IMG/VR virus record: IMGVR_UViG_2718217716_000005
Source: a virus
Lineage: Duplodnaviria > Heunggongvirae > Uroviricota > Caudoviricetes
Strand: one strand, 5' to 3'
Length of the DNA: 37,433 nt
In this document: positions 1-29,314 of the stretch, piece by piece
How the letters are laid out: each line of letters starts with the position of its first letter
How positions within the stretch are numbered: position 1 is the first letter of the stretch
Translations under genes and position numbers: made by a program
The notes under the pieces: generated by a model
Database searches by the model: none
Told to the model about the DNA's origin: nothing
The model's input: only the letters and a program-made list of their open reading frames with translations

Positions 1-738
1 TCATTCACTCTCTTTCAAACCAGTTTTAACTGTTTGTGGTTTTGGGTAAGGCTGGACTTTGAATAGCTTTGTGTTAAGGCGTTTTCTGGCTCTCTTGTCC
101 AGAAACCGGATGTAACGAAACTGACGGAATTTATGAACACTGGCTCTGTCGATATTAGCCCGCAGATGTTCACCTCTCTGTCCGCCTCGTTTAATGGCAT
201 TCCTGCAAATCTCGTGATACCACTCGCCATCAAGTTCATAGAATGTTGTTTCATGGCTGCCTACATAATCAAAATTGCTTGCCTGGTACACGACACCAAG
301 ACAGCCACAACGCTCATCTGCAAACGACTGAACCCACTGTACCTGCGGATAAAGCTGTCTGATTAGTTTGAGTGCGTAACTGATGGCCCTTGATTCGGAG
401 TTTCTCGGCATACAGTCATGCAGCCATAACCGGTTAAGCTCCATATATTCGCGGTTCTGCGTGCCCGTTACGACGCGTGCACCACTGTTTGGATTAAGGG
501 CATAGCCCCATTGCATTACGCCAACCAGCTCCCGTTCTGAAAATATACCCAGATGCAGGTAGGAATTATTTACGAAACGGTGGCTGTAATGTTTATTGAC
601 GATGACCAGTCTGGCCAGCCAGCAACTTATTGTCTCAACCCGTAATTCACGGGAACCATAACCGACGATATTGTCGTTATAGTGAATAAGTTCAGGCGTG
701 CTGATGATACGGGATGTGACTTGCTTTCTGTTCCCCAC
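1..738 (-). CDS. mom: Mom-like DNA modification protein; start uncertain (GTG at 736-738 proposed, preceded by AAGGAAA; the full ORF reaches 933)
   Basis: Last gene at the Mu right-end position, overlapping the 3' end of a Com-like zinc-finger ORF in another frame, as in Mu com-mom. Stop TGA at 1-3. No in-frame ATG near the com stop. Confidence 0.7.
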
Positions 739-892
739 GACAGGATTTCCTTGTGTATGTGGGGTGCTCTGTGGCGCTCTGAGATGTGATTTGATTGAGG
801 GTTTTACAGCGCGGACATTTGACTTCCAGATAACTGAAGCTGGCTCGTGCCAGTAGCTTGTTGCAATGTCGGCACCGTATGTTTCGATACAT
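692..892 (-). CDS. com: Com-like zinc-finger translational activator of mom
   Basis: Small ORF with CxxC...CxxC ([14 protein letters not shown]...KCPRCK), immediately upstream of and overlapping mom. Start taken at the internal Met at 890-892 rather than 937. Confidence 0.7.
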
Positions 893-1149
893 GGCCGCAT
901 AACCTCCTGCTTTGTTGTTGATATCTTTATCACTCAATCGATCGACAAAAACGATCGATTTGATTTATTTAATTGATACAACAAATAACACGAAATGTCA
1001 TTAGCGAAAATTTATGAGTTTGATCACTAATTTTAAAAGGTGCTGTAACGCATAAGTGCTGAATAATTGTACATTTGAATGCCGCAAAGCAAAAAAAATA
1101 AACTAATTGATAAAAATCAATCAGTTAACTGCAAGCGTAAGAGGCTGTT
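893..1149. promoter_or_regulatory. AT-rich divergent control region: candidate mom-operon promoter with three GATC sites and palindromes, plus promoter of the plus-strand gene at 1150
   Basis: GATC at 940-943, 953-956, 1022-1025. Inverted repeat atcgatcg / cgatcgat around 937-959. Possible -35 TTGAAT / -10 TAAACT for the plus strand. Confidence 0.45.
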
Positions 1150-1578: not shown

Positions 1579-1613
1579 AAACCGGCAGAGGACACCACCG
1601 GTTTGTATTTTTA
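1579..1613 (+). terminator. Stem-loop (aaaccgg ... ccggttt) followed by a T-run on the plus strand
   Basis: 7-bp stem at 1579-1585 / 1598-1604, then gtattttta. Lies downstream of the 1150-1443 gene and overlaps the stop of the minus-strand ORF 1611-1865. Confidence 0.4.
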
Positions 1614-1865
1614 CATCATGGTACTGTCAGCTCCGGGCTGAGCTGGTTCTGGTTGCTCTGGCTGCGCGTCGGTTTTCGGCTCATTATCAGCATCACTGGC
1701 CGCAGCAGCTGGTCCAATAAGTTTTGCCAGCACCTCGTCAACGTAAGTGTCGATTTGTGCCTCAAAATCTTTGCGGACCTGCGCTTTCAGCAACTTATTT
1801 ACTTCACCGGAATACAGTGCCTGTTTTACCAGGTCTTCAGTGACGGTGCCTTTAATTTCTGGCAT
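1611..1865 (-). CDS. Hypothetical acidic protein (84 aa)
   Basis: Strong ribosome-binding site AAGGAGG with 6-nt spacer before ATG at 1865. Helical N-terminus, acidic Pro/Glu/Gln-rich C-terminus. Confidence 0.55.
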   Translation of the reverse strand: MPEIKGTVTEDLVKQALYSGEVNKLLKAQVRKDFEAQIDTYVDEVLAKLIGPAAAASDADNEPKTDAQPEQPEPAQPGADSTMM

Positions 1866-1900
1866 GTATATCCTCCTTATGCGGGAATACAGCCCTGCAA

Positions 1901-2083
1901 TCAGGGCTGGGTCGGGCCTTTTGGGAGCGGAGCGGCCTGTGCTGTTTTACTGAGCTTTTCGGCTGCTGCGTCATCAATTTTGCGGCGAACATAATTTCTG
2001 ATGGCTTTATATCCACTGCTCACCAGATATAACGCACATACCGCCGTGCAGAAATAAAGCAGCATCGTATGAACAAATGTCAT
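1901..2083 (-). CDS. Hypothetical small membrane protein (60 aa, one predicted transmembrane helix)
   Basis: AAGGTAAGG-type ribosome-binding site. Hydrophobic stretch MLLYFCTAVCALYLV followed by a basic region. Confidence 0.45.
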   Translation of the reverse strand: MTFVHTMLLYFCTAVCALYLVSSGYKAIRNYVRRKIDDAAAEKLSKTAQAAPLPKGPTQP

Positions 2084-2197
2084 ATAACCTTACCTTTGAT
2101 ATTGACTACAGAAACAGTTTTCAGCTAAAAAGTAACCGCGTACATAATGGCCTTCTTTTCAGAGGTTGTAGCTTTCCTTAATGGGTTTGGAATATCA

Positions 2198-2241
2198 CCC
2201 GCCAGTCAACAAATGGCTCTTTGACCGGCGGGATTTTTTTA
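2198..2241 (+). terminator. Stem-loop cccgccagtcaa ... ttgaccggcggg followed by T7 on the plus strand
   Basis: Seen directly. The T-run is on the plus side only, so it is an efficient terminator only for plus-strand (antisense) transcription; on the minus strand it is a stem-loop without a U-tract just 3' of the esterase gene. Confidence 0.45.
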
Positions 2242-2247
2242 TCCTGC

Positions 2248-4317
2248 TTACGCGTTATTCACTTCCACCACAATGCTGTCAATCAGCACCGGGTATGTTG
2301 CACCGTTAGTGATATCGGTCACGCGTAACTTGTCTGCCGTAAACGTGCCAACCGGAGACTGCGACAGCATGAATGGTGTCCCGTCCTTACCATCAATGAC
2401 CGGCGTCACCTCAATACTGTTGTTACCGGCAAAACGGAAGCCCAGCGTATGCCACTCATTATCAAATGCGCTGAATGCCCCCAGCTTCGTGTTCTGCGCC
2501 GTGTTTCCCTTGTGATACATCACGTTAAGGTCTGTGGCATCGCTCTGTACGTAGAACGACGCCAGCAGGTTATGACCGGCATTACCTTCCAGAGTAACCC
2601 CTTGTGGCAGGGCAGAAACCGGCCAGTACAGCGCCAGTGCGTACTGATTAGCCGTAAGCGCGCCATCGAGTTTAAAACGACAACTGACAAGACCACCTTT
2701 ACCCAGCAGGTCCGCACCATTACCGGCATCATGCTCAAGATACCAGGAGGATTTGCCTGTTTCCTTGGTCAGTTTCATGGCCTTACCACTACCAGCTCCG
2801 GCATCATCCACGATTTGAGCCTTACCGCCTCCGGCAGTCCAGCCCTGTGGTGCCAGCTGTCCTTCAGACTCTGATGCCCGGTAAGCAAACAGGGTGCTCA
2901 TCGTCGTGGTGTCAGCCGGTGGTGTGGACGGTGTATCCGGCGATGGTGTTGATGGCGTGTCAGGTGATGGTTTTTCATCCGGCTGTGTCACAACCGGTCC
3001 CTGCATCACTTCAGGTGTGCGTCCCGCATGGAGCAGAATGGCTGAGGCCAGACGGTCTGAAATAATGCCCCTGCGTGCCCATGAGCTGAAATGGCTGTCA
3101 CGCTGTGTCGAGACAAAACTGCCCTGGGTACGGGATGCCGCACCGTAATACCCGACAGTCACAATATCCGGGTCTTCCGCCTGAGCATTCGTTGGCGTGT
3201 TCTGTCCATTCTCATCCGTCAGGAAAGGTACAAAGAAAATATTCTGAGTTTCCTTGCCTTTGTAGCCACCGTATACCGCCTCATATTTATCGGTGCCAGC
3301 GTTTTTCCAGTAATACGTGGTATCACCACAAATCCACGGTACCGTGCCAGCATTTCCACTCACGCACTGCGCAGCAAGCGGAGACAGGTCAGTTCTGAAC
3401 TGCTGAACCATGGTCGTGAATAAACCATTATGCTGCTGACTTCCCGATGCAAGGTCTGCTTCTCCCTGCATCCAGACCACAGCCAGAAGTTTGTTTTTCG
3501 GGTTCTTCGCCAGCGCCGCTCTGGTACGGCTTACCAGGTCCTGATACAGAGGTTTACCGACTCCCCAGCGTGAAGAATCAGCGGAAGCACCGCTGGTCTC
3601 ACTGAATGAACCGTCCGCCCCGGTGGTAAATGCTGACCCACCACGGCAACAGGGCACCAGAAGAATCCCGGCATTCTGCGGGATATAAGGCAGCAGTTTT
3701 TTGGCAATATGCAGCCCCTGACCGACAGTCCCGTACTGGCCTTTTGCCAGATCAGCTTTCGGGTGGTTTATCCCGCTCATATCCTGCACATCATGCAGGC
3801 AGTGATCTGCCGGAATGATGTCGTTATATGTACACGACGTACCGTCGGGCGTGACCGTGCTGCGGCGTGCCAGTTGCTTAATCCGTGGGTCCGGGCGGTC
3901 AAATGAATCCGGTAACGGAAGCCCTTCACCATAGGCCATGCCATTTGATTGTCCCGCCAGTGGGATCACATAGTAATACTCCGGCTCTGTGGTACTGCCA
4001 TTCGTGCTGCCGGAAGGCCCGGCGTTATCCGGTGCATTCCAGTCGGAGGGCGTGAGTGTTCCGGCCACGTCAGCTGTAATCGGAATGATGCCGGTCACGC
4101 CTGAACTGGTGATTTCTGCACTGGGATTACCGGATACCGGCATTATCCATAATGGCTCTTTCGTGCTGAAGCGGATCACGCAGTCTGCGAAGGTGATCCC
4201 CCCTTTATTACCCGAAGGCCTGAAAGGACTTTCAATAAATGCCACCGTGCCACCGGCAACCTTGACTGAAAACTCTCCGGGCATGGCGGAGAGCATTTTC
4301 CACTGGGAGTCTGACAT
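2248..4317 (-). CDS. Multidomain protein: N-terminal region, SGNH/SASA-type O-acetylesterase-like domain, Pro/Thr linker, C-terminal lectin-like beta domain (689 aa)
   Basis: Motifs YVIPLAGQSNGMAYGEG (GQSN nucleophile motif), VVWMQGEAD, DSHF (Asp/His of triad); linker PSPDTPSTPSPDTPSTPP; C-terminal ~220 aa Gly/Asn/Thr-rich. Sits where Mu carries the G segment and gin. Confidence 0.7.
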   Translation of the reverse strand: MSDSQWKMLSAMPGEFSVKVAGGTVAFIESPFRPSGNKGGITFADCVIRFSTKEPLWIMPVSGNPSAEITSSGVTGIIPITADVAGTLTPSDWNAPDNAGPSGSTNGSTTEPEYYYVIPLAGQSNGMAYGEGLPLPDSFDRPDPRIKQLARRSTVTPDGTSCTYNDIIPADHCLHDVQDMSGINHPKADLAKGQYGTVGQGLHIAKKLLPYIPQNAGILLVPCCRGGSAFTTGADGSFSETSGASADSSRWGVGKPLYQDLVSRTRAALAKNPKNKLLAVVWMQGEADLASGSQQHNGLFTTMVQQFRTDLSPLAAQCVSGNAGTVPWICGDTTYYWKNAGTDKYEAVYGGYKGKETQNIFFVPFLTDENGQNTPTNAQAEDPDIVTVGYYGAASRTQGSFVSTQRDSHFSSWARRGIISDRLASAILLHAGRTPEVMQGPVVTQPDEKPSPDTPSTPSPDTPSTPPADTTTMSTLFAYRASESEGQLAPQGWTAGGGKAQIVDDAGAGSGKAMKLTKETGKSSWYLEHDAGNGADLLGKGGLVSCRFKLDGALTANQYALALYWPVSALPQGVTLEGNAGHNLLASFYVQSDATDLNVMYHKGNTAQNTKLGAFSAFDNEWHTLGFRFAGNNSIEVTPVIDGKDGTPFMLSQSPVGTFTADKLRVTDITNGATYPVLIDSIVVEVNNA

Positions 4318-4621
4318 CGTCTTTTCTGCCTGTTTCTGAATTAAACAGAGTCAGAATAACAACCGCTGATAAATATGTGTTTTGCGGAAATTCAAAAAAA
4401 GCGTCACAGTACTTTTCGTGACGGAGCCGGTGAGGCAGGAACATAACGACAAAGAATGGACAGGCCAATACGATAACCGCATATTACCGGCTTATAATTG
4501 ATTTAACGATTCATGACGCTGCGTTCAGCACCTGAAAATATGCGTTATTTCAGAAACCCCTTGCCTGTATATGGCAATAGTATTGTTCCTGTTTTTATCA
4601 TTGATTTACATGGTGATGTTT

Positions 4622-18822: not shown

Positions 18823-19946
18823 TATTGCATTTCCTCTTTCATTTTCAGGAACTCGGCTTCGGTTTTACCCAGCAGATGGGCGGCGGCGATATCTTCAGCC
18901 GACAGCACAGCGGTGGCGGTCTTTTTATCCGGCACGGTCACGGTGTCGGTCTGAAGAGTGGTCAGAGCCGCAACCGGCTGGCGGGCGTCAAGCTGTGCAG
19001 AAAGTGCCGCAACACCAATCTGTTGTCCGAGTCCTTCCATGTATCCGCGTTCGCTTTTGAAAATGCGTCCTTCGGACTCGGCCTTATCCAGCAACTGCTC
19101 CAGCGTGGTGCTGCCGTGTTGTGCCGACAACGCGACATATTCGGTACGCAGGGCGTTATACGTCTCAACGGGCACGTATTTCGTCAGATCAATAGTGCCG
19201 CCAGTTGGTGTGCCTTTTGCGGTTTCCAGCTCTGCCGACAGGCTGGCAACCTGTGTTTTCAGGGTGTCGTGCGCATCCGCACGGGTTTTGATCCCGGTAA
19301 GGGCAGACAGCGCCGCCGTGCCCAGTTCCGGCGTAAATTCGTCACCGTCAGCCACGGTCAGACCGAGCGCCGTCAGCAACTGGCGTAATTGCTCATTCAT
19401 GGAGGTGTCCTTTAAAGGAGGGTTTAAGGCGTTATAAAGGTCATCCGCCGACAGTGCGGCGACAGGATTCATGCCAGTCAGACCGGGGTCACCGGTAATA
19501 GCCAGCATCCGGAGCTCAACAGGTTCACCGGTGATTTCGTCATAACTAATCACCGGGGAAAACCAGGGAAATTCGTTATTGCGCAGGTGTTCAATGGCCG
19601 GAGGGTTCCAGTCCGGACGCACTTCAAAACCACGCTCTTCACTGAAACGGAAGTTCTCCGGCGAGGCCATGACAAAACCGGCAGCCGGTGCCGCATGCCC
19701 CTCAATCAGGGTCTGGTGGTTGTAGTCAATCTTCACCGGCTGATTGAGCGCCACAACCCGGGATACCATGCGCCCAACGGTCGCACGGTTAATCAGCCAG
19801 CCTTCAGCCGGTTTTTCCGGGCGACCGTCACGGGCCTTTACCCGACCGGCTGGCATGATCTGACACCAGTCACCGTCCCCGTCTGCGGACAGGCTGATGG
19901 CATTCAGAATGGCATAAGCAAGTTTGGGCGTGTTTTTCGTCTTCAT
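18822..19946 (-). CDS. Head maturation protease / scaffold (Mu I-like)
   Basis: 374-aa ORF; ATG overlaps the downstream capsid gene start. Confidence 0.75.
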   Translation of the reverse strand: MKTKNTPKLAYAILNAISLSADGDGDWCQIMPAGRVKARDGRPEKPAEGWLINRATVGRMVSRVVALNQPVKIDYNHQTLIEGHAAPAAGFVMASPENFRFSEERGFEVRPDWNPPAIEHLRNNEFPWFSPVISYDEITGEPVELRMLAITGDPGLTGMNPVAALSADDLYNALNPPLKDTSMNEQLRQLLTALGLTVADGDEFTPELGTAALSALTGIKTRADAHDTLKTQVASLSAELETAKGTPTGGTIDLTKYVPVETYNALRTEYVALSAQHGSTTLEQLLDKAESEGRIFKSERGYMEGLGQQIGVAALSAQLDARQPVAALTTLQTDTVTVPDKKTATAVLSAEDIAAAHLLGKTEAEFLKMKEEMQ

Positions 19947-20123
19947 TCCGGCAGCATAAGCCGGTGTTTTTCAGGGCAGGTTTTGCGGGACTTCAGAAAG
20001 TGCTGACAGGGGAAAAATGAGAAAGGCGCTTCACGCAGATTTTAAAGCCCGTTAAATACAGGTTAGAAAATCACGACACGCGCCTGAAGAGGGTAAGGTA
20101 ATGTATTTGTATACCTTAAACCA
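19947..20123. promoter_or_regulatory. G-I intergenic region: candidate late promoter and candidate central strong gyrase site
   Basis: 177-bp non-coding gap at the genome centre between G-like and I-like genes, where Mu has P_I and its strong gyrase site. Contains hairpins (ccggc-agcataa-gccgg + T5; taaggta...tacctta). No motif-level confirmation. Confidence 0.35.
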
Positions 20124-23632: not shown

Positions 23633-25287
23633 CCCCGATCAAATTCATGATATGCCTCATCGTCATCACGATAACCGCCCTCCATTGCCCGCGACCGCTC
23701 CGGCAGCGCCTGACAAGCTGATTCATCCAGGATGAAGCCCTCCATGTATGACGCCCGGTTTGCCATACAGAGCGCCACGGCAAAATCACCATGGCGGCGG
23801 GCGTTCGCAGCCGTTGCGTTCTGGTCCTTCGTGCGCCCCTTGTCGATTTGCGGGATACCATTCACCACCTTCACATGGCGCAAATCATCAAGCGTGGTCT
23901 GATGGCGGGCGACGAGGATATTCTGATCTTCAAACTCGGCTTTCAGTTTTGGCATCCACTCGCCGTACCACTTCGGCGACAACATCACGCAGTCGATGAT
24001 GTCCGGGCCAAAGGCCAGCAGTGCGGCCTCTGCCAGATAGCCGCCGTTACCGGTGGCGTCGAACGCCGCACCGACCAGTGCCGGAACGCGGGTCAGGATG
24101 TACATCATCACCTGTTCCTGCTGGGCATACGGAAGGTTGCGCAGCTCCACGCGAAACACCTCGCGCTTTGCCAGGGATTCGGTGATTTCCAGCAGCACAA
24201 AGCAGGACAGGTCACCGGTGCGGGCAAAGTCTTCCCCGAAGCTGAAGCGGGAACGGGGATTTAATTTGTCTGTAAACGGTTTTAAATGTTCTTCACACCA
24301 GGTTAAAACTTCCGATTCACGCAGCCATGCGGCACGGCTGATGAAGTCGTCCGGAGCTTCAAACGTCAGAATCGGGATGTCACGGATCATCGCCATTTCA
24401 ATAAGCGCGTGGGGGATATAGGCACCGCCGGATTTTTTCGGGATACAGCCGTATTCCTCGTCGGCGTCCTCACGGGTCGGGGCATTTTTGTAGAGATCAT
24501 CACGCCATTTCTGCTCGCTTTCCGGCGACCATTCCTGATCGGTGACGTAACAGATACGACGGTATAATCCGTCCGCAATGGCATCATCCAGGGTTATGCG
24601 GTGGACGCTGTAATCCTTGCGCCCCTCGCGGGCTTCCTGAATGTACTGATTAAACAGATTATCGACGCCGTTATGCGTGGAAATAATGCGCACGCGTGCG
24701 CCCCACATGGTAAGCGCCATTGCCGCCTTGAGAAGCTCATCCAGTGACTCGTGGAACGCGGCTTCATCAATCACCACATCCCCCTGAAGGCCGCGAAGGT
24801 TTGATGGACGGGAAGACAGTGCCTGAATTTTGAATCCACTGTTCGGAAAGCGGATCATGTAGGTCAAAATTTCTTCTTTTTTATCCCGATCCCAGAATGT
24901 CTGCTCATACACATCAGCATCTGCCAGCTGGTTAAAGGCACGGGAGAACAGCGCGCAGGCAGAAATATATTCCAGCGCCATCTCCTGTTTTGACCCCACA
25001 TAAAACACATTGCGGCCACCACGCCGCTTCGGTTTTGCAGCGGTAATGACGTTACGCCCGGCTTCCGCCCAGGTAAGCCCGGTGCGGCGGGATTTTTCCG
25101 CGATGCAGACCTGACTTTCATCCGCAAACCAGCGGGCCTGATAATCCAGAAACACCGGCATATCACCGGGCAAATCAAGGCTGTCCGGCACATCCACGCC
25201 CAGCAGGGCTTTTTCACCGGACAGATCAATTTTGCGGGGAGGCGTCATTTGTATCAGTGAAGGAGACTTTTCTTTGGCTTTGTTCAT
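23623..25287 (-). CDS. Terminase large subunit
   Basis: 554-aa ORF with Walker-like and nuclease-like regions, first large gene of the late structural block. Confidence 0.8.
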   Translation of the reverse strand: MNKAKEKSPSLIQMTPPRKIDLSGEKALLGVDVPDSLDLPGDMPVFLDYQARWFADESQVCIAEKSRRTGLTWAEAGRNVITAAKPKRRGGRNVFYVGSKQEMALEYISACALFSRAFNQLADADVYEQTFWDRDKKEEILTYMIRFPNSGFKIQALSSRPSNLRGLQGDVVIDEAAFHESLDELLKAAMALTMWGARVRIISTHNGVDNLFNQYIQEAREGRKDYSVHRITLDDAIADGLYRRICYVTDQEWSPESEQKWRDDLYKNAPTREDADEEYGCIPKKSGGAYIPHALIEMAMIRDIPILTFEAPDDFISRAAWLRESEVLTWCEEHLKPFTDKLNPRSRFSFGEDFARTGDLSCFVLLEITESLAKREVFRVELRNLPYAQQEQVMMYILTRVPALVGAAFDATGNGGYLAEAALLAFGPDIIDCVMLSPKWYGEWMPKLKAEFEDQNILVARHQTTLDDLRHVKVVNGIPQIDKGRTKDQNATAANARRHGDFAVALCMANRASYMEGFILDESACQALPERSRAMEGGYRDDDEAYHEFDRGCW

Positions 25288-25535
25288 CAGGCTTTACCTG
25301 TCAGAATGCTTTTGATTCGGAACTCAAGCTCTTCAGTCATCACGTCCACGCCACTCAACTCATCAGTGACAGCCTCTGCCAGCAGCGAATGCAGTTGTTC
25401 CAGGGATATTTCTCCGGCAATGCTGAGTTCAGTCAACTCACGACACGCTTTTATGGTTTCAGGAGGTAACTGTGTTGCAAGACTGAATGCCTTCTGATGA
25501 GCACTACTCATCAGTGAGCGGTTATCTGTTGCCAC
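25287..25535 (-). CDS. Small protein (82 aa) translationally coupled to the large terminase; C-terminus paralogous to the upstream 193-aa protein
   Basis: GTG start at 25535 preceded by AGGAGGTGA. Stop overlaps the terminase ATG. C-terminal AVTDELSGVDVMTEELEFRIKSILTGKA matches AVTDELRGVDGMSEQIEFRIRQMLLGKA of the neighbour. Confidence 0.55.
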   Translation of the reverse strand: MATDNRSLMSSAHQKAFSLATQLPPETIKACRELTELSIAGEISLEQLHSLLAEAVTDELSGVDVMTEELEFRIKSILTGKA

Positions 25536-26129: not shown

Positions 26130-26420
26130 TTATCCCCTTGCGCGTGGTTTCTTCACACCCGGAACAGTGGCACGACCTTCCGCCACATCCTGACCCCGGC
26201 CGGTCAGTTCAGCGATGAAATAACCGTTAACAAGCGTGCGCTTACGCACCAGTCCCTGCTCGGCAAGCCAGGCAATGTGGGTGTGAACGGTGTCGCGGGA
26301 CACACGGTGGCCGTAATCATCCAGGCAGTCCTGAAGCACGGATTCGCCCAGTTCGCCGTTGTAATCCGCCAGCGACCGCAGAATGACAAGACGCTGATCT
26401 TCAGTAATGAAATCACTCAT
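26130..26420 (-). CDS. Hypothetical late protein (Mu gp26 position)
   Basis: 96-aa ORF; start overlaps the upstream stop. Confidence 0.5.
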   Translation of the reverse strand: MSDFITEDQRLVILRSLADYNGELGESVLQDCLDDYGHRVSRDTVHTHIAWLAEQGLVRKRTLVNGYFIAELTGRGQDVAEGRATVPGVKKPRARG

Positions 26421-26725
26421 TGTGTTTTTTTCCTTACAGCCTGCTCCAGCAGCAGTTCGTTCTGGTGGGAGACGGATTTCAGGGTGGCATTGGTGGCCTT
26501 AAGCTCACCGCGCAGGGTGGTGATTTCGATATTGAGTCTGTTCACCTCCTGCTGCGTGGGCAGGCCGGAAATCCGGCTTTCCACCCGCTCAACCCGGTCG
26601 GAGAGTTTTTCAAAGGCCTCGCGGGGGACAAAGGTTTTGCGCATCAGCGCCATAAAGATCCCCCCGGCCGTGGCTGTTGCCGACAGGATCGGCACGACAT
26701 AATCTTTAACGATGCTGACCCACAT
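26417..26725 (-). CDS. Small membrane protein with N-terminal transmembrane helix and coiled-coil (Mu gp25-like, candidate lysis accessory protein)
   Basis: N-terminus VVPILSATATAGGIFMALM is hydrophobic, followed by a helical region; located just after the spanin genes. Confidence 0.5.
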   Translation of the reverse strand: MWVSIVKDYVVPILSATATAGGIFMALMRKTFVPREAFEKLSDRVERVESRISGLPTQQEVNRLNIEITTLRGELKATNATLKSVSHQNELLLEQAVRKKTQ

Positions 26726-26933
26726 GACCGGCCTCCATGATGCTCTGGCAGTTCACACAACGGATGGCATCCGGCACGGCAACCAGACGGGCGGCCGGAA
26801 TGTCACCCCCGCAGTCCGCGCATACACGCCTGCCCGGAGTCTCCTCCACCCGGCACTTACGTGTCAGCCGGTCACAAAGGGCGCGTTCTGTTGCCCGCTC
26901 CACGACTGCCTGAGCACAATCTGAATCATCCAT
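26706..26933 (-). CDS. TraR/DksA-family C4 zinc-finger protein
   Basis: CADCGGDIP...CVNCQ pair of CxxC motifs. Start at the internal Met at 26931-26933 with AAGGAAAAGG ribosome-binding site. Confidence 0.55.
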   Translation of the reverse strand: MDDSDCAQAVVERATERALCDRLTRKCRVEETPGRRVCADCGGDIPAARLVAVPDAIRCVNCQSIMEAGHVGQHR

Positions 26934-26943
26934 ACCTTTTTCC

Positions 26944-27315
26944 TTACTTCGTCTTTCCTGCCGGAACAGCAGTCGTTCCGGCCATATCAGTAAATTCATG
27001 CTGTCGCTGTGCCTCCAGACGGCGGATGCTGGCCTTGTCCACGTTGCAGTTCTTAATCACCGCCAGCAGTTGCAGGTTGTAAGTGACCGATGCGCCAAAC
27101 GTGAACGGCTGCGGCACAGGAGGAACCAGACAGTCAGCCAGCCATTCAGCGGGGATCGGCACCGGCTTCACCGGCACGTATTTCACAGACGGCCCGCCGC
27201 ACCCGGTCAGCCACATCATCAGGCACAGGAACAGAGGCCGCAGGCACCGTTGCCAGCGACCGGCGGACAATGCTCTGCTGTTCCTCGCTGTGCTGCATGT
27301 TCTGCTGTTTTTCAT
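26944..27315 (-). CDS. Outer-membrane spanin-like lipoprotein (Rz1-like), overlapping the i-spanin in another frame; start uncertain
   Basis: Lipobox LTGC preceded by hydrophobic LRPLFLCLMMW; Pro-rich mature region. Confidence 0.5.
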   Translation of the reverse strand: MKNSRTCSTARNSRALSAGRWQRCLRPLFLCLMMWLTGCGGPSVKYVPVKPVPIPAEWLADCLVPPVPQPFTFGASVTYNLQLLAVIKNCNVDKASIRRLEAQRQHEFTDMAGTTAVPAGKTK

Positions 27316-27535
27316 TCGTGGCCGCCTTACTGATTTGTGAAATGAGTTGCAGGGTACGTTGCTGGTTTGCCAGCACCAGACGGGCTTCGTCCCGTTCACG
27401 CACAAGCACATGATTATTGTCTTCAAGACGCTGTGTCTTCTGGTGCATTCCCCATACCACGGCAGCCAGCACGCTCATCACCCCCAGCGCCGCCATACAC
27501 CCTCCGGCAATCAGGGCCGGTAAGGGATTATTCAC
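27146..27535 (-). CDS. Inner-membrane spanin-like protein (Rz-like); start uncertain (GTG proposed)
   Basis: Hydrophobic N-terminal segment PALIAGGCMAALGVMSVLAAVVW followed by a charged coiled region, immediately after the endolysin gene. The ORF track's Met at 27667 lies inside the endolysin gene. Confidence 0.45.
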   Translation of the reverse strand: MNNPLPALIAGGCMAALGVMSVLAAVVWGMHQKTQRLEDNNHVLVRERDEARLVLANQQRTLQLISQISKAATNEKQQNMQHSEEQQSIVRRSLATVPAASVPVPDDVADRVRRAVCEIRAGEAGADPR

Positions 27536-27608
27536 CGCAGCCACAGCACACCCCGGAGCACCACAACGACACACAACAGCGCAATCATGAGTGGTCGCCA
27601 GAAGCGGT

Positions 27609-28109
27609 TCAGACTTTCGGCAAATCGTAGCGACATAACCATTCATCCGCCGAACGGCGGGCCTCAAGGCCGGGGAGTTTTACCCCCTTTGAATAAATCC
27701 AGCGGATATACTGCTTACAGGACGCGGGCATCTGCCCGGCATTGATAAGGCGCAGGAGCGTGGAGTTGCGAAAGTTCGTTTCACCGGCCCAGAAAATCCA
27801 GGAGGCCAGCGCCACCGTCTGACCACGGGTAAGCGGCACCTGAACATGACGATCGATAGCCGCAAAGGCCCATTTCATGTCCTTTTCCAGCAGCTCCAGA
27901 CACTCTTCATCAGTTTTTGTCATACCCGGTTTCACATCCGGGCCGGTATGGCCGTAACAGATGGTGGGGGTGCCGGTGGGATCAATGTACGTGGTGTTTT
28001 CTTTCCCTTCCCAGTAGCCGGTGTAGTGCGTGGCAATGGTGAACGTCCCGGCTCCGGCCAGAACAAGGGCAATCAGCTTTTTACGCAGGGGTGCGGGGAG
28101 TTTTGGCAT
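27609..28109 (-). CDS. Endolysin, lysozyme-like with SAR-type N-terminal signal-anchor
   Basis: N-terminus KKLIALVLAGAGTFTIA is a Gly/Ala-rich weak transmembrane segment. Catalytic-region pattern E-x8-D-x5-T (YWEGK...DPTG.PTICYGHTG). Confidence 0.75.
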   Translation of the reverse strand: MPKLPAPLRKKLIALVLAGAGTFTIATHYTGYWEGKENTTYIDPTGTPTICYGHTGPDVKPGMTKTDEECLELLEKDMKWAFAAIDRHVQVPLTRGQTVALASWIFWAGETNFRNSTLLRLINAGQMPASCKQYIRWIYSKGVKLPGLEARRSADEWLCRYDLPKV

Positions 28110-28110
28110 T

Positions 28111-28148
28111 GTTACGCTGTCTCATGGTGTTCTCTGAGTCAGCGTAAC
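28111..28148. promoter_or_regulatory. Perfect 9-bp inverted repeat (gttacgctg ... cagcgtaac, 20-nt spacer) immediately upstream of the endolysin start codon
   Basis: Seen directly; the 3' arm ends 1 nt before the lys ATG on the minus strand. Confidence 0.5.
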
Positions 28149-28180
28149 CGTGGGAAAAAGTGGGCAGGATTTGCGGAATA

Positions 28181-28603
28181 TCAGAAAAGCCGGGGCTGCG
28201 TGCGTTCCTGATGCAGGCGGCGCTGGGTGCGGATAACGGAGTAAATCTGCGTCTCTGACATCTGGTAGTGGCGGCGCAGGGTTTCAATTTTTTCGCCCTG
28301 GCTCCAGCGGGAAAAAATTTCATTATTGCGCAGTTCGGTGAAAAGGGATTCACCGACCGGGAGATAATAACCACGCCCGCCCATGTACCCGGCCTGTGCG
28401 GCCGCAACTTTACGGGCAAGCATTCCCGCCTGAGCAGATTCAATCCCCTGACGGTGCAGTTCAGCACTGATCACATCAACCAGGTCCCGCAGCGTGCCGG
28501 GCCAGTTCTTTTTCAGCTCATCATCAGGAATGTCATCCAGACGGTCAATCAGCGCGTGCAGCTGTTCGCTGTCACCAAACATGCTCATCTGTGTTTCAGC
28601 CAT
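28181..28603 (-). CDS. Mor/C-family transcriptional activator (140 aa), the only member in the window
   Basis: Size and position directly upstream of lys. C-terminal helix-turn-helix-like IETLRRHYQMSETQIYSVIRTQRR, GGAGG ribosome-binding site. Confidence 0.7.
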   Translation of the reverse strand: MAETQMSMFGDSEQLHALIDRLDDIPDDELKKNWPGTLRDLVDVISAELHRQGIESAQAGMLARKVAAAQAGYMGGRGYYLPVGESLFTELRNNEIFSRWSQGEKIETLRRHYQMSETQIYSVIRTQRRLHQERTQPRLF

Positions 28604-28645
28604 ACCCGCCTCCGGTCATCATTACACAGGGCAAGTTTAAAATAA

Positions 28646-28669
28646 AAATCCCGCGCTGTGGCGGGATTT
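28646..28669. terminator. Hairpin aaatcccgc-gctgtg-gcgggattt (bidirectional terminator-like), left copy of a ~35-bp direct repeat
   Basis: 9-bp perfect stem flanked by A-run and T-run. Near-identical copy at 29291-29314. Confidence 0.6.
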
Positions 28670-28942
28670 AGGAATGTAACGAATAAACGAGCTTAACAAT
28701 ACCTGGACAAATATTGATCAGTTAATCGTGTAAGTGTATGATAAATATCATTTATTTATTCTTCTGAATATACCGATTGTTTTTTTACCACTGATGAGAT
28801 CATCACTGGTATATGCGAGCTGGTTGTCTTTAATTATCAAACATGCTTTGCCGTAAAAAAGCATGGAAAAAGACATAAAAACTAACGCTCTGAAGATAAC
28901 AAACCGTTCCTTTAACGTTTTTTTATACAGGACTATGTTCAT

Positions 28943-29284
28943 ATGACTTTTGGCCCCATCATTGAGTTTGAATCAGGCTATACCGATGACATGTACCAGT
29001 CCCTGCAGGATAATGGTATCAGATACACCCCTATTGCAGCTTTATCATACAATGTAACCGAAATGGTTGAGTTGCTCCATGCGGTTAACACGCCAGAAAC
29101 ATGGGCCGCTATTGTTCTCATCGTAAAAAAATGGATAAACCGACACAAGGATGCCAGTGTTGAATTAACCATGAATGAGAACGGGCAACTGACATCCGTA
29201 AAAATAAACGGCTACAACGTAAATGATCTGGATAAGCTTGGAGTACCCAGTTTGATTCGAGCTTCTTTTAAATCAGAGGAGTAA
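28943..29284 (+). CDS. Hypothetical protein (113 aa), opposite-strand low-GC insertion between GemA and the Mor/C activator
   Basis: ATG at 28943 after a very AT-rich 270-bp leader, followed immediately by a terminator hairpin. No recognisable motif. Confidence 0.6.
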   Translation: MTFGPIIEFESGYTDDMYQSLQDNGIRYTPIAALSYNVTEMVELLHAVNTPETWAAIVLIVKKWINRHKDASVELTMNENGQLTSVKINGYNVNDLDKLGVPSLIRASFKSEE

Positions 29285-29290
29285 AATAAG

Positions 29291-29314
29291 AAATCCCGCA
29301 CTGTGGCGGGATTT
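29291..29314. terminator. Hairpin aaatcccgc-actgtg-gcgggattt, right copy of the direct repeat
   Basis: Sits between the stop of the plus-strand gene (29284) and the stop of gemA (29318). Confidence 0.6.

Follow-up and report, generated by a model that had tools for sequence, protein, structure and literature searches.

A Mu-type lysis module with a late promoter predicted inside the inverted repeat before its endolysin gene

Introduction

Phage Mu lyses its host without a holin; its gp22 is a signal-arrest-release (SAR) endolysin, and gp23 and gp23.1 are its spanins (Chamblee et al. 2022, mBio; PMC9239132). The absence of a holin was shown by the lack of lethal triggering upon depolarisation, and freeing of the endolysin requires gp25, the founding member of the DUF2730 family and a membrane-tethered cytoplasmic "releasin", a dependence that is due to two adjacent basic residues in the cytoplasmic tail of the endolysin (PMC9239132). 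According to the same work, the membrane junction of DUF2730 proteins is marked by an RR or RK motif, and these proteins are encoded no more than five genes downstream of the endolysin (PMC9239132). Here we describe a related lysis cassette in the IMG/VR virus record IMGVR_UViG_2718217716_000005 (Caudoviricetes), together with an inverted repeat that immediately precedes its endolysin gene, lys. The whole stretch of 37,433 nucleotides that was analysed is called the window, and the cassette lies on its minus strand.

Two other systems bear on the repeat. Davis, Simons and Kleckner reportedly described, in 1985, a fold-back inhibition of the translation of IS10 and IS50 transposase in read-through transcripts. 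In Mu, a hairpin occludes the start of mom, and the zinc-finger protein Com opens it. As to transcription, promoters dependent on the activators Mor and C have a -10 hexamer and an upstream activator element, but no -35 hexamer (PMC2582627).

A sequence-only reading of the window had proposed a lysis cassette lacking an obvious holin and had suggested that the repeat might occlude the ribosome-binding region of lys or serve as a protein-binding site. Considering the locus as a whole, we lean towards a Mu-like holin-less late lysis module equipped with a fold-back repeat as the best explanation, with somewhat more confidence than doubt.

Results

The window carries a Mu-type lysis cassette

A 2.3-kb query spanning the cassette (26400-28700) matched the chromosome of E. 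coli M3 at 100% identity, and related copies were present in 231 of 5426 complete E. coli genomes (~4%), many of them O157:H7. The nearest phage records were Mu-like inserts within Stx phages (88% identity), and the match of Mu to the window at the DNA level was limited to gene 26. Besides the lysis genes, the window encodes a transposase, a transposition protein, GemA, a portal protein, a terminase, a head protease, com and mom. Judged from this gene content, it is a nearly whole Mu-like (transposable) prophage, with its genes on the minus strand.

The transposase, GemA, Mor/C and portal genes are hallmarks of transposable phages that the window has in common with Mu, as is the gene order C-lys(22)-23/23.1-24-25-26-27-28. 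Protein identity to Mu amounted to 40% for C, 40% for lys (gp22), 33% for gp25 (E = 3e-18), 62% for gp26 and 57% for gp27. The gene ahead of lys (28181..28603, minus strand) encodes a late transcription activator of the Mor/C family (140 aa; Pfam Mor, E = 6.5e-31; phrog_532, "late transcriptional activator"), the sole Mor/C homologue seen in this region.

The lys gene (27609..28109, minus strand) encodes a 166-aa protein of the Pfam family Phage_lysozyme (PF00959, E = 1e-36), of which the catalytic pattern E34-X8-D43-X5-T49 was invariant across the alignment. Its N-terminus, MPKLPAPLRKK-LIALVLAGAGTFTIAT, contains the adjacent basic residues R9-K10-K11 followed by a weakly hydrophobic stretch rich in Ala, Gly and Thr. 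These three amino acids make up 9 of the 16 residues of LIALVLAGAGTFTIAT, a composition that agrees with the definition of SAR domains given in PMC9239132. The N-terminus thus looks like a SAR domain, in keeping with the SAR-type endolysin that the sequence-only reading had recognised.

Further downstream, the gene for an Rz-like inner-membrane spanin (i-spanin; 27146..27544, minus strand, in the open frame 27667..27146; 132 aa; phrog_214, E = 1.2e-29) encodes a protein in which a hydropathy scan detected an N-terminal membrane segment. It overlaps, in a different frame, the gene for an outer-membrane spanin (o-spanin), an Rz1/LysC-like lipoprotein (26944..27315, minus strand, in the open frame 27426..26944; PF23793 LysC, E = 1.3e-16) with the lipobox LTGC, whose Cys codon is at 27201..27199. 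The family matches bear out the earlier proposal of overlapping spanin candidates. Their start codons had been called uncertain, and comparison with relatives narrowed the choice. For the i-spanin, the start is most likely GTG 27544, which aligns with an ATG start in Citrobacter-type lineages; the GGAGG ahead of the alternative ATG 27496 was not kept in relatives. For the o-spanin, the alignment of relatives makes ATG 27315 the most likely start: the beginning M-(K/R)-N was conserved, and the relative L044 has a stop codon just upstream. In RefSeq, the Prokaryotic Genome Annotation Pipeline (PGAP) begins this gene at GTG 27186 (NZ_CP010183.1, RG55_RS27805; window 26944-27186), 3' of the lipobox Cys codon. 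Because this start is downstream of the lipobox, the annotated protein would have neither signal peptide nor lipidation site, and the annotated start must be wrong.

The TraR/DksA zinc-finger gene reported before was recovered as a gene for a 75-aa C4-type protein (26706..26933, minus strand; PF01258, E = 2.2e-11). It begins at ATG 26933, with AAGGAAAAAGG upstream, a start identical to that chosen by PGAP, and occupies the position of Mu gp24. The next gene (26417..26725, minus strand) encodes the small single-pass membrane protein for which a role as release factor had been suggested. This 102-aa protein belongs to DUF2730 (PF10805, E = 1.1e-22, profile positions 3-101 of 102), the family of the Mu gp25 releasin, and its gene is the fifth after lys if a small 36-aa open reading frame (ORF), described below, is counted. 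Its membrane segment, at residues 10-28 in the hydropathy scan, is followed by R29-K30 at the junction (ALM-RK-TF) and by a C-terminal domain of ~73 aa that is predicted to be cytoplasmic.

In the basic residues of the endolysin, the ALM-RK-TF junction and the order of the genes, the window displays all of the sequence features set out for Mu. The cassette is therefore very probably, as far as sequence can tell, a lysis module of the Mu type, comprising a SAR endolysin, a two-component spanin and a DUF2730 protein. This arrangement is already published for Mu and so is not new; the window is a divergent member. By analogy with Mu, the endolysin would be exported by the Sec system and then tethered to the inner membrane in an inactive state, held by its N-terminal R9-K10-K11; the DUF2730 protein, as a homologue of the gp25 releasin, would promote its release, and the i-/o-spanin pair would then disrupt the outer membrane. 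The sequences and the gene order are those observed here, and the functions of the cassette proteins are read across from Mu.

An inverted repeat abuts the endolysin start codon

The perfect 9-bp inverted repeat that had been reported at 28111-28148 (minus strand), ending 1 nt before the lys ATG at 28109, was confirmed and found to be longer. The perfect arms, GTTACGCTG (28148..28140) and CAGCGTAAC (28119..28111), extend to 13 pairs out of 14, formed by a left arm at 28148..28135 (GTTACGCTGACTCA) and a right arm at 28124..28111 (TGAGACAGCGTAAC), with one A-A mismatch and a loop of 10 nt (28134..28125). A looser extension gives arms of 24 nt that are 79% complementary. In the predicted RNA fold, two outer pairs of the hairpin take in the UG of the lys AUG.

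The predicted RNA fold had an energy of -19.5 kcal/mol and a z-score of -5.7, none of 200 dinucleotide shuffles being as stable. With composition corrected for, the hairpin ranked in the top 0.3% of 1869 tiled minus-strand windows. By contrast, its raw folding energy was merely at the 20th percentile of 61-nt windows, and perfect 9-bp repeats with loops of 3-40 nt are common in the window (14, versus 4.8 ± 2.5 in shuffles). Raw energy and the bare count of 9-bp repeats do not single out the site; only the composition-corrected and comparative tests do.

Several identities were tried for the repeat and rejected. A known RNA family was set aside, as the whole window gave no match to Rfam 15 at the gathering threshold, and the region 27800-28800 gave only sub-threshold chance matches, none of them on the hairpin. 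An intrinsic terminator was rejected since the stem is followed by AAUGCCAAAAC, with no U tract, and was not listed by the terminator scan. The same scan detected no terminator-like site in the 71 nt from the activator stop codon to the lys ATG. An antisense promoter was rejected, the opposite strand being devoid of the upstream motif described in the next section.

A late promoter is predicted inside the left arm of the repeat

The motif TTTYTGAWNTYCCGCAAA had three matches in the window, all on the minus strand and intergenic, versus 0.06 expected, an expectation that is partly circular because the motif was derived from the same three sites. One site follows the activator stop codon and precedes lys, the second precedes the gene for the head protease (the homologue of Mu gene I), and the third precedes an accessory operon at the right end. 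At all three, the motif is located at a fixed distance of 23-24 nt upstream of a TAYKCT hexamer, and the motif was kept in relatives.

At lys, the predicted activator-dependent upstream element, TTTCTGATATTCCGCAAATCC (28167..28187, minus strand), is abutted by the stop codon of the activator gene. The predicted -10 hexamer, TACGCT (28141..28146, minus strand), has the spacing of TATGCT and TATTCT at the other two sites and is situated inside the left arm of the repeat. No -35 hexamer was present (1 of 6 consensus bases), and a sigma-70 scan found no promoter there; nor did the 71 nt that separate lys from the activator gene contain an alternative -10 hexamer upstream. This layout fits that predicted for a Mor/C-dependent late promoter.

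The position of the transcription start was taken from Mu. Oligonucleotides used for Mu Plys carry 20 nt past the mapped +1, and this design places +1 at tcAGagaa, 7 nt after TAGACT (PMC4461284). The window has the 8-mer TCAGAGAA, in common with Mu Plys, 3 nt after TACGCT. From the Mu start and the shared 8-mer, we therefore predict the late start at 28133..28135 (minus strand), i.e. at the loop end of the left arm.

Given this predicted start, a hairpin arm lies upstream of the native start, which is the disposition of fold-back control of the IS10/IS50 type. Because its left arm holds the -10 hexamer, upstream of the predicted start, the repeat would not be a feature of the normal late lys mRNA. 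RNA beginning at the predicted +1 (28135) was indeed unstructured in silico (-6.4 kcal/mol, z = -0.13), and the mean unpaired probability of the lys start region was 0.22 in read-through RNA versus 0.54 in late RNA.

These findings suggested the following model. Both arms would be carried only by RNA reading through from the activator gene, no terminator separating this gene from lys. Such RNA would fold into the 13-bp hairpin and bury the 14 nt directly upstream of the AUG, whereas in late transcripts, which would begin within the hairpin, the start region would stay accessible. As a net effect, the endolysin would be translated solely once the activator has switched on the late promoter. That the hairpin occludes lys only on read-through RNA, with the late promoter sitting within it, appears to us plausible, if a little short of probable. 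The occlusion of the lys ribosome-binding region that had been suggested from the letters alone would thus hold for read-through RNA and probably not for the normal late mRNA.

The start region has two further features. In the lineages designated A and B below, to which the window belongs, lys is devoid of a clear Shine-Dalgarno sequence. In the same two lineages only, a 14-codon out-of-frame upstream ORF, MRQRNNAKTPRTPA (28082-28126, minus strand; AUG 28126), opens ~9 nt past the predicted late start and extends over the start of lys.

As for the second motif site (19944-19999, minus strand), its -10 hexamer TATGCT (19958..19953) is just 6 nt from the head protease ATG at 19946, which would leave the head protease transcript with almost no leader. 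TATGCT is bracketed by an inverted repeat of 5 bp, CCGGC (19964..19960) and GCCGG (19952..19948), which ends 1 nt before the ATG, a layout that echoes that at lys. The third motif (4398..4381, in the region 1611-4398, minus strand) lies ahead of the gene for a 689-aa protein with a SASA (sialate O-acetylesterase) domain and DUF6645. This gene is followed by DUF1378 (2083..1901) and then DUF826 (1865..1611) genes, a cargo resembling a block found near the lysis genes of Stx phages.

Pairing between promoter and start region recurs in Mu-like lineages

Junctions between activator gene and lys were gathered from ~100 loci in public collections and comprised lineages A-H plus Mu and the Pasteurella phage Pmp9. 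A search of genome contigs with a single endolysin contributed one locus, and a metagenome scan yielded near-identical copies. Loci L103-L147, whose endolysin was less than ~52% identical, were dropped as not Mu-like, having no Mor or DUF2730 gene. The distant Mu-like phages HS6 and MuM16-1 were uninformative, as their activator gene is not next to the endolysin gene.

The comparison bore on a simple alternative, namely that the repeat has no function of its own, its arms being complementary by chance or as a side effect of constraints acting separately on the -10 region and the start region. The abundance of perfect 9-bp repeats in the window and the unremarkable raw folding energy would agree with this. 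So would the invariance of the arms in lineages A and B, which leaves no covariation, and the weak z-scores of individual relatives. In support of the hairpin, on the other hand, the two sole variable sites between -10 hexamer and ATG in these lineages are both unpaired, one being the internal mismatch and the other in the loop. The z-score of -5.7 at lys and the rank among tiled windows are difficult to reconcile with chance, and so is what was observed in the other lineages, where the sequence differs and yet the -10/+1 segment is again predicted to pair with the start region.

In Mu itself, the pairing partner of UGAUGGCGG at the start codons is CUGCCAUCA, which ends at the mapped +1; the promoter/start pairing is CTGCCATCA/TGATGGCGG. 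In Pmp9, the activator of which is 39% identical, the promoter reads TTTGAAACTTCACAAA-N22-TAAACT, and TAAACT forms part of the left arm of a hairpin of 13 bp, after which come six T residues and the ATG (z = -4.9); the layout is that of the window, in an unrelated sequence. Mu and the Citrobacter-type relatives have a canonical terminator between the activator gene and lys.

Across nine Mu-like lineages, Mu among them, the 16-nt promoter segment paired with its own lys start region with a mean energy of -13.8 kcal/mol, versus -6.9 kcal/mol with the start regions of other lineages (permutation of cognate pairs, p < 5e-5; p = 5e-5 without the window's lineage). When the cognate start region was ranked against ~570 other targets of the same locus, its place was within the best 0-7.5% whichever the lineage (Fisher combined p = 3e-10, and 1e-8 when the window's lineage was left out). 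Since nine lineages, differing in sequence, have promoter and start segments that are complementary, we give a repeat devoid of function a minor chance only.

A related arrangement was seen in the Shewanella phage MuM16-2 (L152:2290-2357) and the Vibrio phage 1.028.O (L151:2390-2461). Their hairpins (z = -5.2 and -3.3, respectively) have the outer stem AAAAGCACAAUC/GGUUGUGCUUUU in common and inner stems that differ in sequence, both of which still pair. The hairpin abuts the ATG of the gene after the first ORF following the activator gene; this gene is annotated as lysozyme family in MuM16-2 and as hypothetical in 1.028.O. These hairpins may act as a terminator, a 5' stabiliser or a translational block.

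Between lys and the i-spanin gene, a conserved membrane ORF of 36 aa

The absence of a nearby holin, claimed by the sequence-only reading, stood in part. Among all ORFs of at least 30 aa, a hydropathy scan found no multi-pass membrane ORF on the coding strand, and the submitted ORFs with a membrane segment had no match to PHROGs holin families. Stx phages have a holin beside their DUF1378 gene; none was present next to the DUF1378 gene at the window's right end, where one was looked for. The earlier reading had, however, missed a small ORF of 36 aa, MVMSLRFAESLNRFWRPLMIALLCVVVVLRGVLWLR (27532..27642, minus strand), with one membrane segment, which was recognised by its conservation and codon substitutions.

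This ORF starts 33 nt inside the 3' end of lys, in another frame, and its end overlaps the start of the i-spanin gene. It was intact in all of lineages A-G, down to 68% identity in lys, with a total length of 36-37 aa, a constant 22 codons from W15 to the stop, and conservation of WRP...LRGVLWL. The W15 codon, at 27600..27598, is shared with none of the other genes. Comparison with relatives revealed 5-8 synonymous and 7-10 non-synonymous codon changes in its frame (e.g. 8/10, 7/9 and 7/8), versus 0-4 and 11-17, respectively, in the other two frames. This substitution pattern is that of a real coding frame, and on such grounds we consider that the ORF is an additional component of the cassette in this clade.

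No counterpart was found in Mu or in lineage H, where the lys and i-spanin genes overlap directly. The ORF had no Pfam or PHROG family, was missing from the PGAP annotation and was unrelated to Mu gp20. A single unnamed homologue was found among 1.84 billion representative proteins, exact look-ups of nine variants were empty, and tblastn against phages returned just the same prophage family.

The presence of a conserved 36-aa membrane ORF in the cassette makes "no holin" a provisional statement for this clade. The cassette may not be truly holin-less if the ORF encodes a minimal holin, a pinholin or an antiholin that times lysis. Such a function would suit a protein with one membrane segment, a conserved WRP...LRGVLWL and the substitution pattern of a real coding frame, whose place on the late transcript is after the endolysin gene and before those of the spanins; it would also suit the absence of the ORF from Mu, where the lack of a holin was demonstrated. 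Yet, similarity to holin families was not significant (best phrog_3427, E = 0.066, with one variant only), and, to our knowledge, characterised holins are all larger than a 36-aa protein with a single segment. Furthermore, with an intact homologue of the DUF2730 releasin at hand, the Mu-like route would already suffice. We therefore regard a holin-type function of this ORF as unlikely.

Other features near the cassette

Two near-identical terminator-like hairpins, AAATCCCGCCACAG[C/T]GCGGGATTT, are found at 28669..28646 and 29314..29291 (region 28646-29314). They flank an AT-rich segment of ~620 bp (32-44% G+C, versus ~56% around it) with two ORFs, at 28943..29284 (plus strand, 113 aa) and 28942..28748 (minus strand, 64 aa, one hydrophobic segment), neither of which had a family match. 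In relatives such as L004, gemA is directly followed by the activator gene; because these relatives lack the segment, it looks like an inserted accessory gene (moron).

On the other side of the cassette, the gp27 gene and that for the large terminase have between them an ORF of 82 aa (25287-25535, minus strand; phrog_30922) with a resemblance to the C-terminus of gp27. It appears, from this resemblance, to be a partial duplication of gp27, present in some relatives only.

Discussion

We have compared the lysis cassette of a Mu-like prophage with that of Mu and propose that the repeat ahead of lys acts by fold-back. Two further roles may be envisaged for the hairpin. In the first, it would belong to the normal late lys mRNA and, by itself or as a protein-binding site, limit or gate endolysin translation throughout the late phase. 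The hairpin is strong and abuts the AUG of a gene devoid of a good Shine-Dalgarno sequence; the prophage encodes a Com-Mom pair, so that hairpin-gated translation exists in this phage type and a factor might open the lys hairpin likewise; and in MuM16-2 and 1.028.O the first late gene of the lysozyme family has a long hairpin right up against its ATG. This would however require a transcript with both arms, whereas the alignment of three promoters puts the -10 hexamer within the left arm, the mapped +1 of Mu is at the 3' end of the corresponding left arm, the 71-nt intergenic region offers no other -10 hexamer upstream, and RNA from the predicted +1 is unstructured, all of which makes such gating quite improbable. 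The second role would concern mainly the transcript upstream rather than lys translation, with the hairpin serving as a factor-independent terminator, as an insulator or to stabilise the activator mRNA at its 3' end. In its favour, the six T residues after the equivalent hairpin of Pmp9 are reminiscent of an intrinsic terminator, and true terminators follow the activator gene in Mu and the Citrobacter-type lineage. Against it, the stem in the window leads into AAUGCCAAAAC without a U tract and escaped the terminator scan, and we hold this role to be most improbable.

Several points weigh against the explanation that we favour, a Mu-like holin-less module with a fold-back repeat. With respect to the module, the releasin function has been established solely for Mu gp25, which is 33% identical to the window protein, and the 36-aa ORF could yet prove to be a holin-like trigger. 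With respect to the repeat, the late start was deduced from Mu and from the spacing of the motif, transcription was assumed to read through from the activator gene, and the lack of a clear Shine-Dalgarno sequence ahead of lys in this lineage makes the use of the start region itself uncertain. Position alone is weak evidence, because any hairpin in a segment of ~60 nt must pair the promoter side with the start-codon side. In the comparison, the fold z-scores of individual relatives were modest (-0.8 to -2.5), and the relative L036 breaks two pairs of the homologous stem. The -10 hexamers of distant lineages were assigned by eye, which could bias the duplex tests, and the lineages are not fully independent, some being related.

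A release factor in place of a holin has been known for Mu since 2022, and what is added here is the promoter within the hairpin and the 36-aa ORF. Going beyond what is published, we tentatively propose (a) that Mu-like phages, including Mu, put the late lys promoter inside a fold-back hairpin and (b) that the 36-aa membrane protein could be a lysis timing factor, whether as a mini-holin or antiholin or by partnering the SAR endolysin or the releasin. If (a) is true, the endolysin start would be translatable solely on activator-dependent transcripts, a general safeguard against premature lysis that is undescribed for this phage group. The fold-back rule may explain how early lysis is avoided where the activator gene runs straight into the endolysin gene. 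If (b) is true, "holin-less" Mu-like prophages of a widespread clade, among them those of E. coli O157:H7, would carry an unannotated membrane protein. Such a conserved membrane mini-gene bears on how lysis is timed without a holin. As a practical consequence, the automated annotation of the cassette is incomplete, lacking the small ORF and starting the o-spanin 3' of its lipobox.

Compared with Mu, the window differs in that it has just one Mor/C activator and lacks a middle operon containing genes 18-20. A terminator follows the activator gene in Mu, whereas none separates the activator gene from lys in the window. Furthermore, the directly overlapping lys and i-spanin genes of Mu are in the window accompanied by the extra 36-aa membrane ORF between them. 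The predicted promoters resemble Plys, PI, PP and Pmom, the late promoters of Mu, in that a -10 hexamer is present, a -35 hexamer absent and the upstream element conserved (PMC2582627, PMC4461284), and the copy before the head protease gene mirrors PI. The upstream element differs from that of Mu in sequence (TTTCTGAnnTnCCGCAAA), and its CCGCA core is 8 bp further from the -10 hexamer.

The com-mom system, of which the window has its own copy at the right end (1-937, minus strand; com 937..692, PF10122; mom 933..1, PF25680), likewise relies in a Mu-type phage on a start-proximal hairpin to control a late, potentially lethal gene. The mom hairpin, however, is within the com-mom mRNA and is opened by a protein, whereas the late mRNA is predicted not to contain the lys hairpin at all. 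In that respect lys would be closer to IS10 and IS50, where the native promoter likewise lies inside a potential hairpin and transcripts started outside are alone in carrying both arms, which sequester the start region. In the window, the gene that would be protected is a phage endolysin rather than a transposase, and the outside transcript would be the phage's own activator mRNA.

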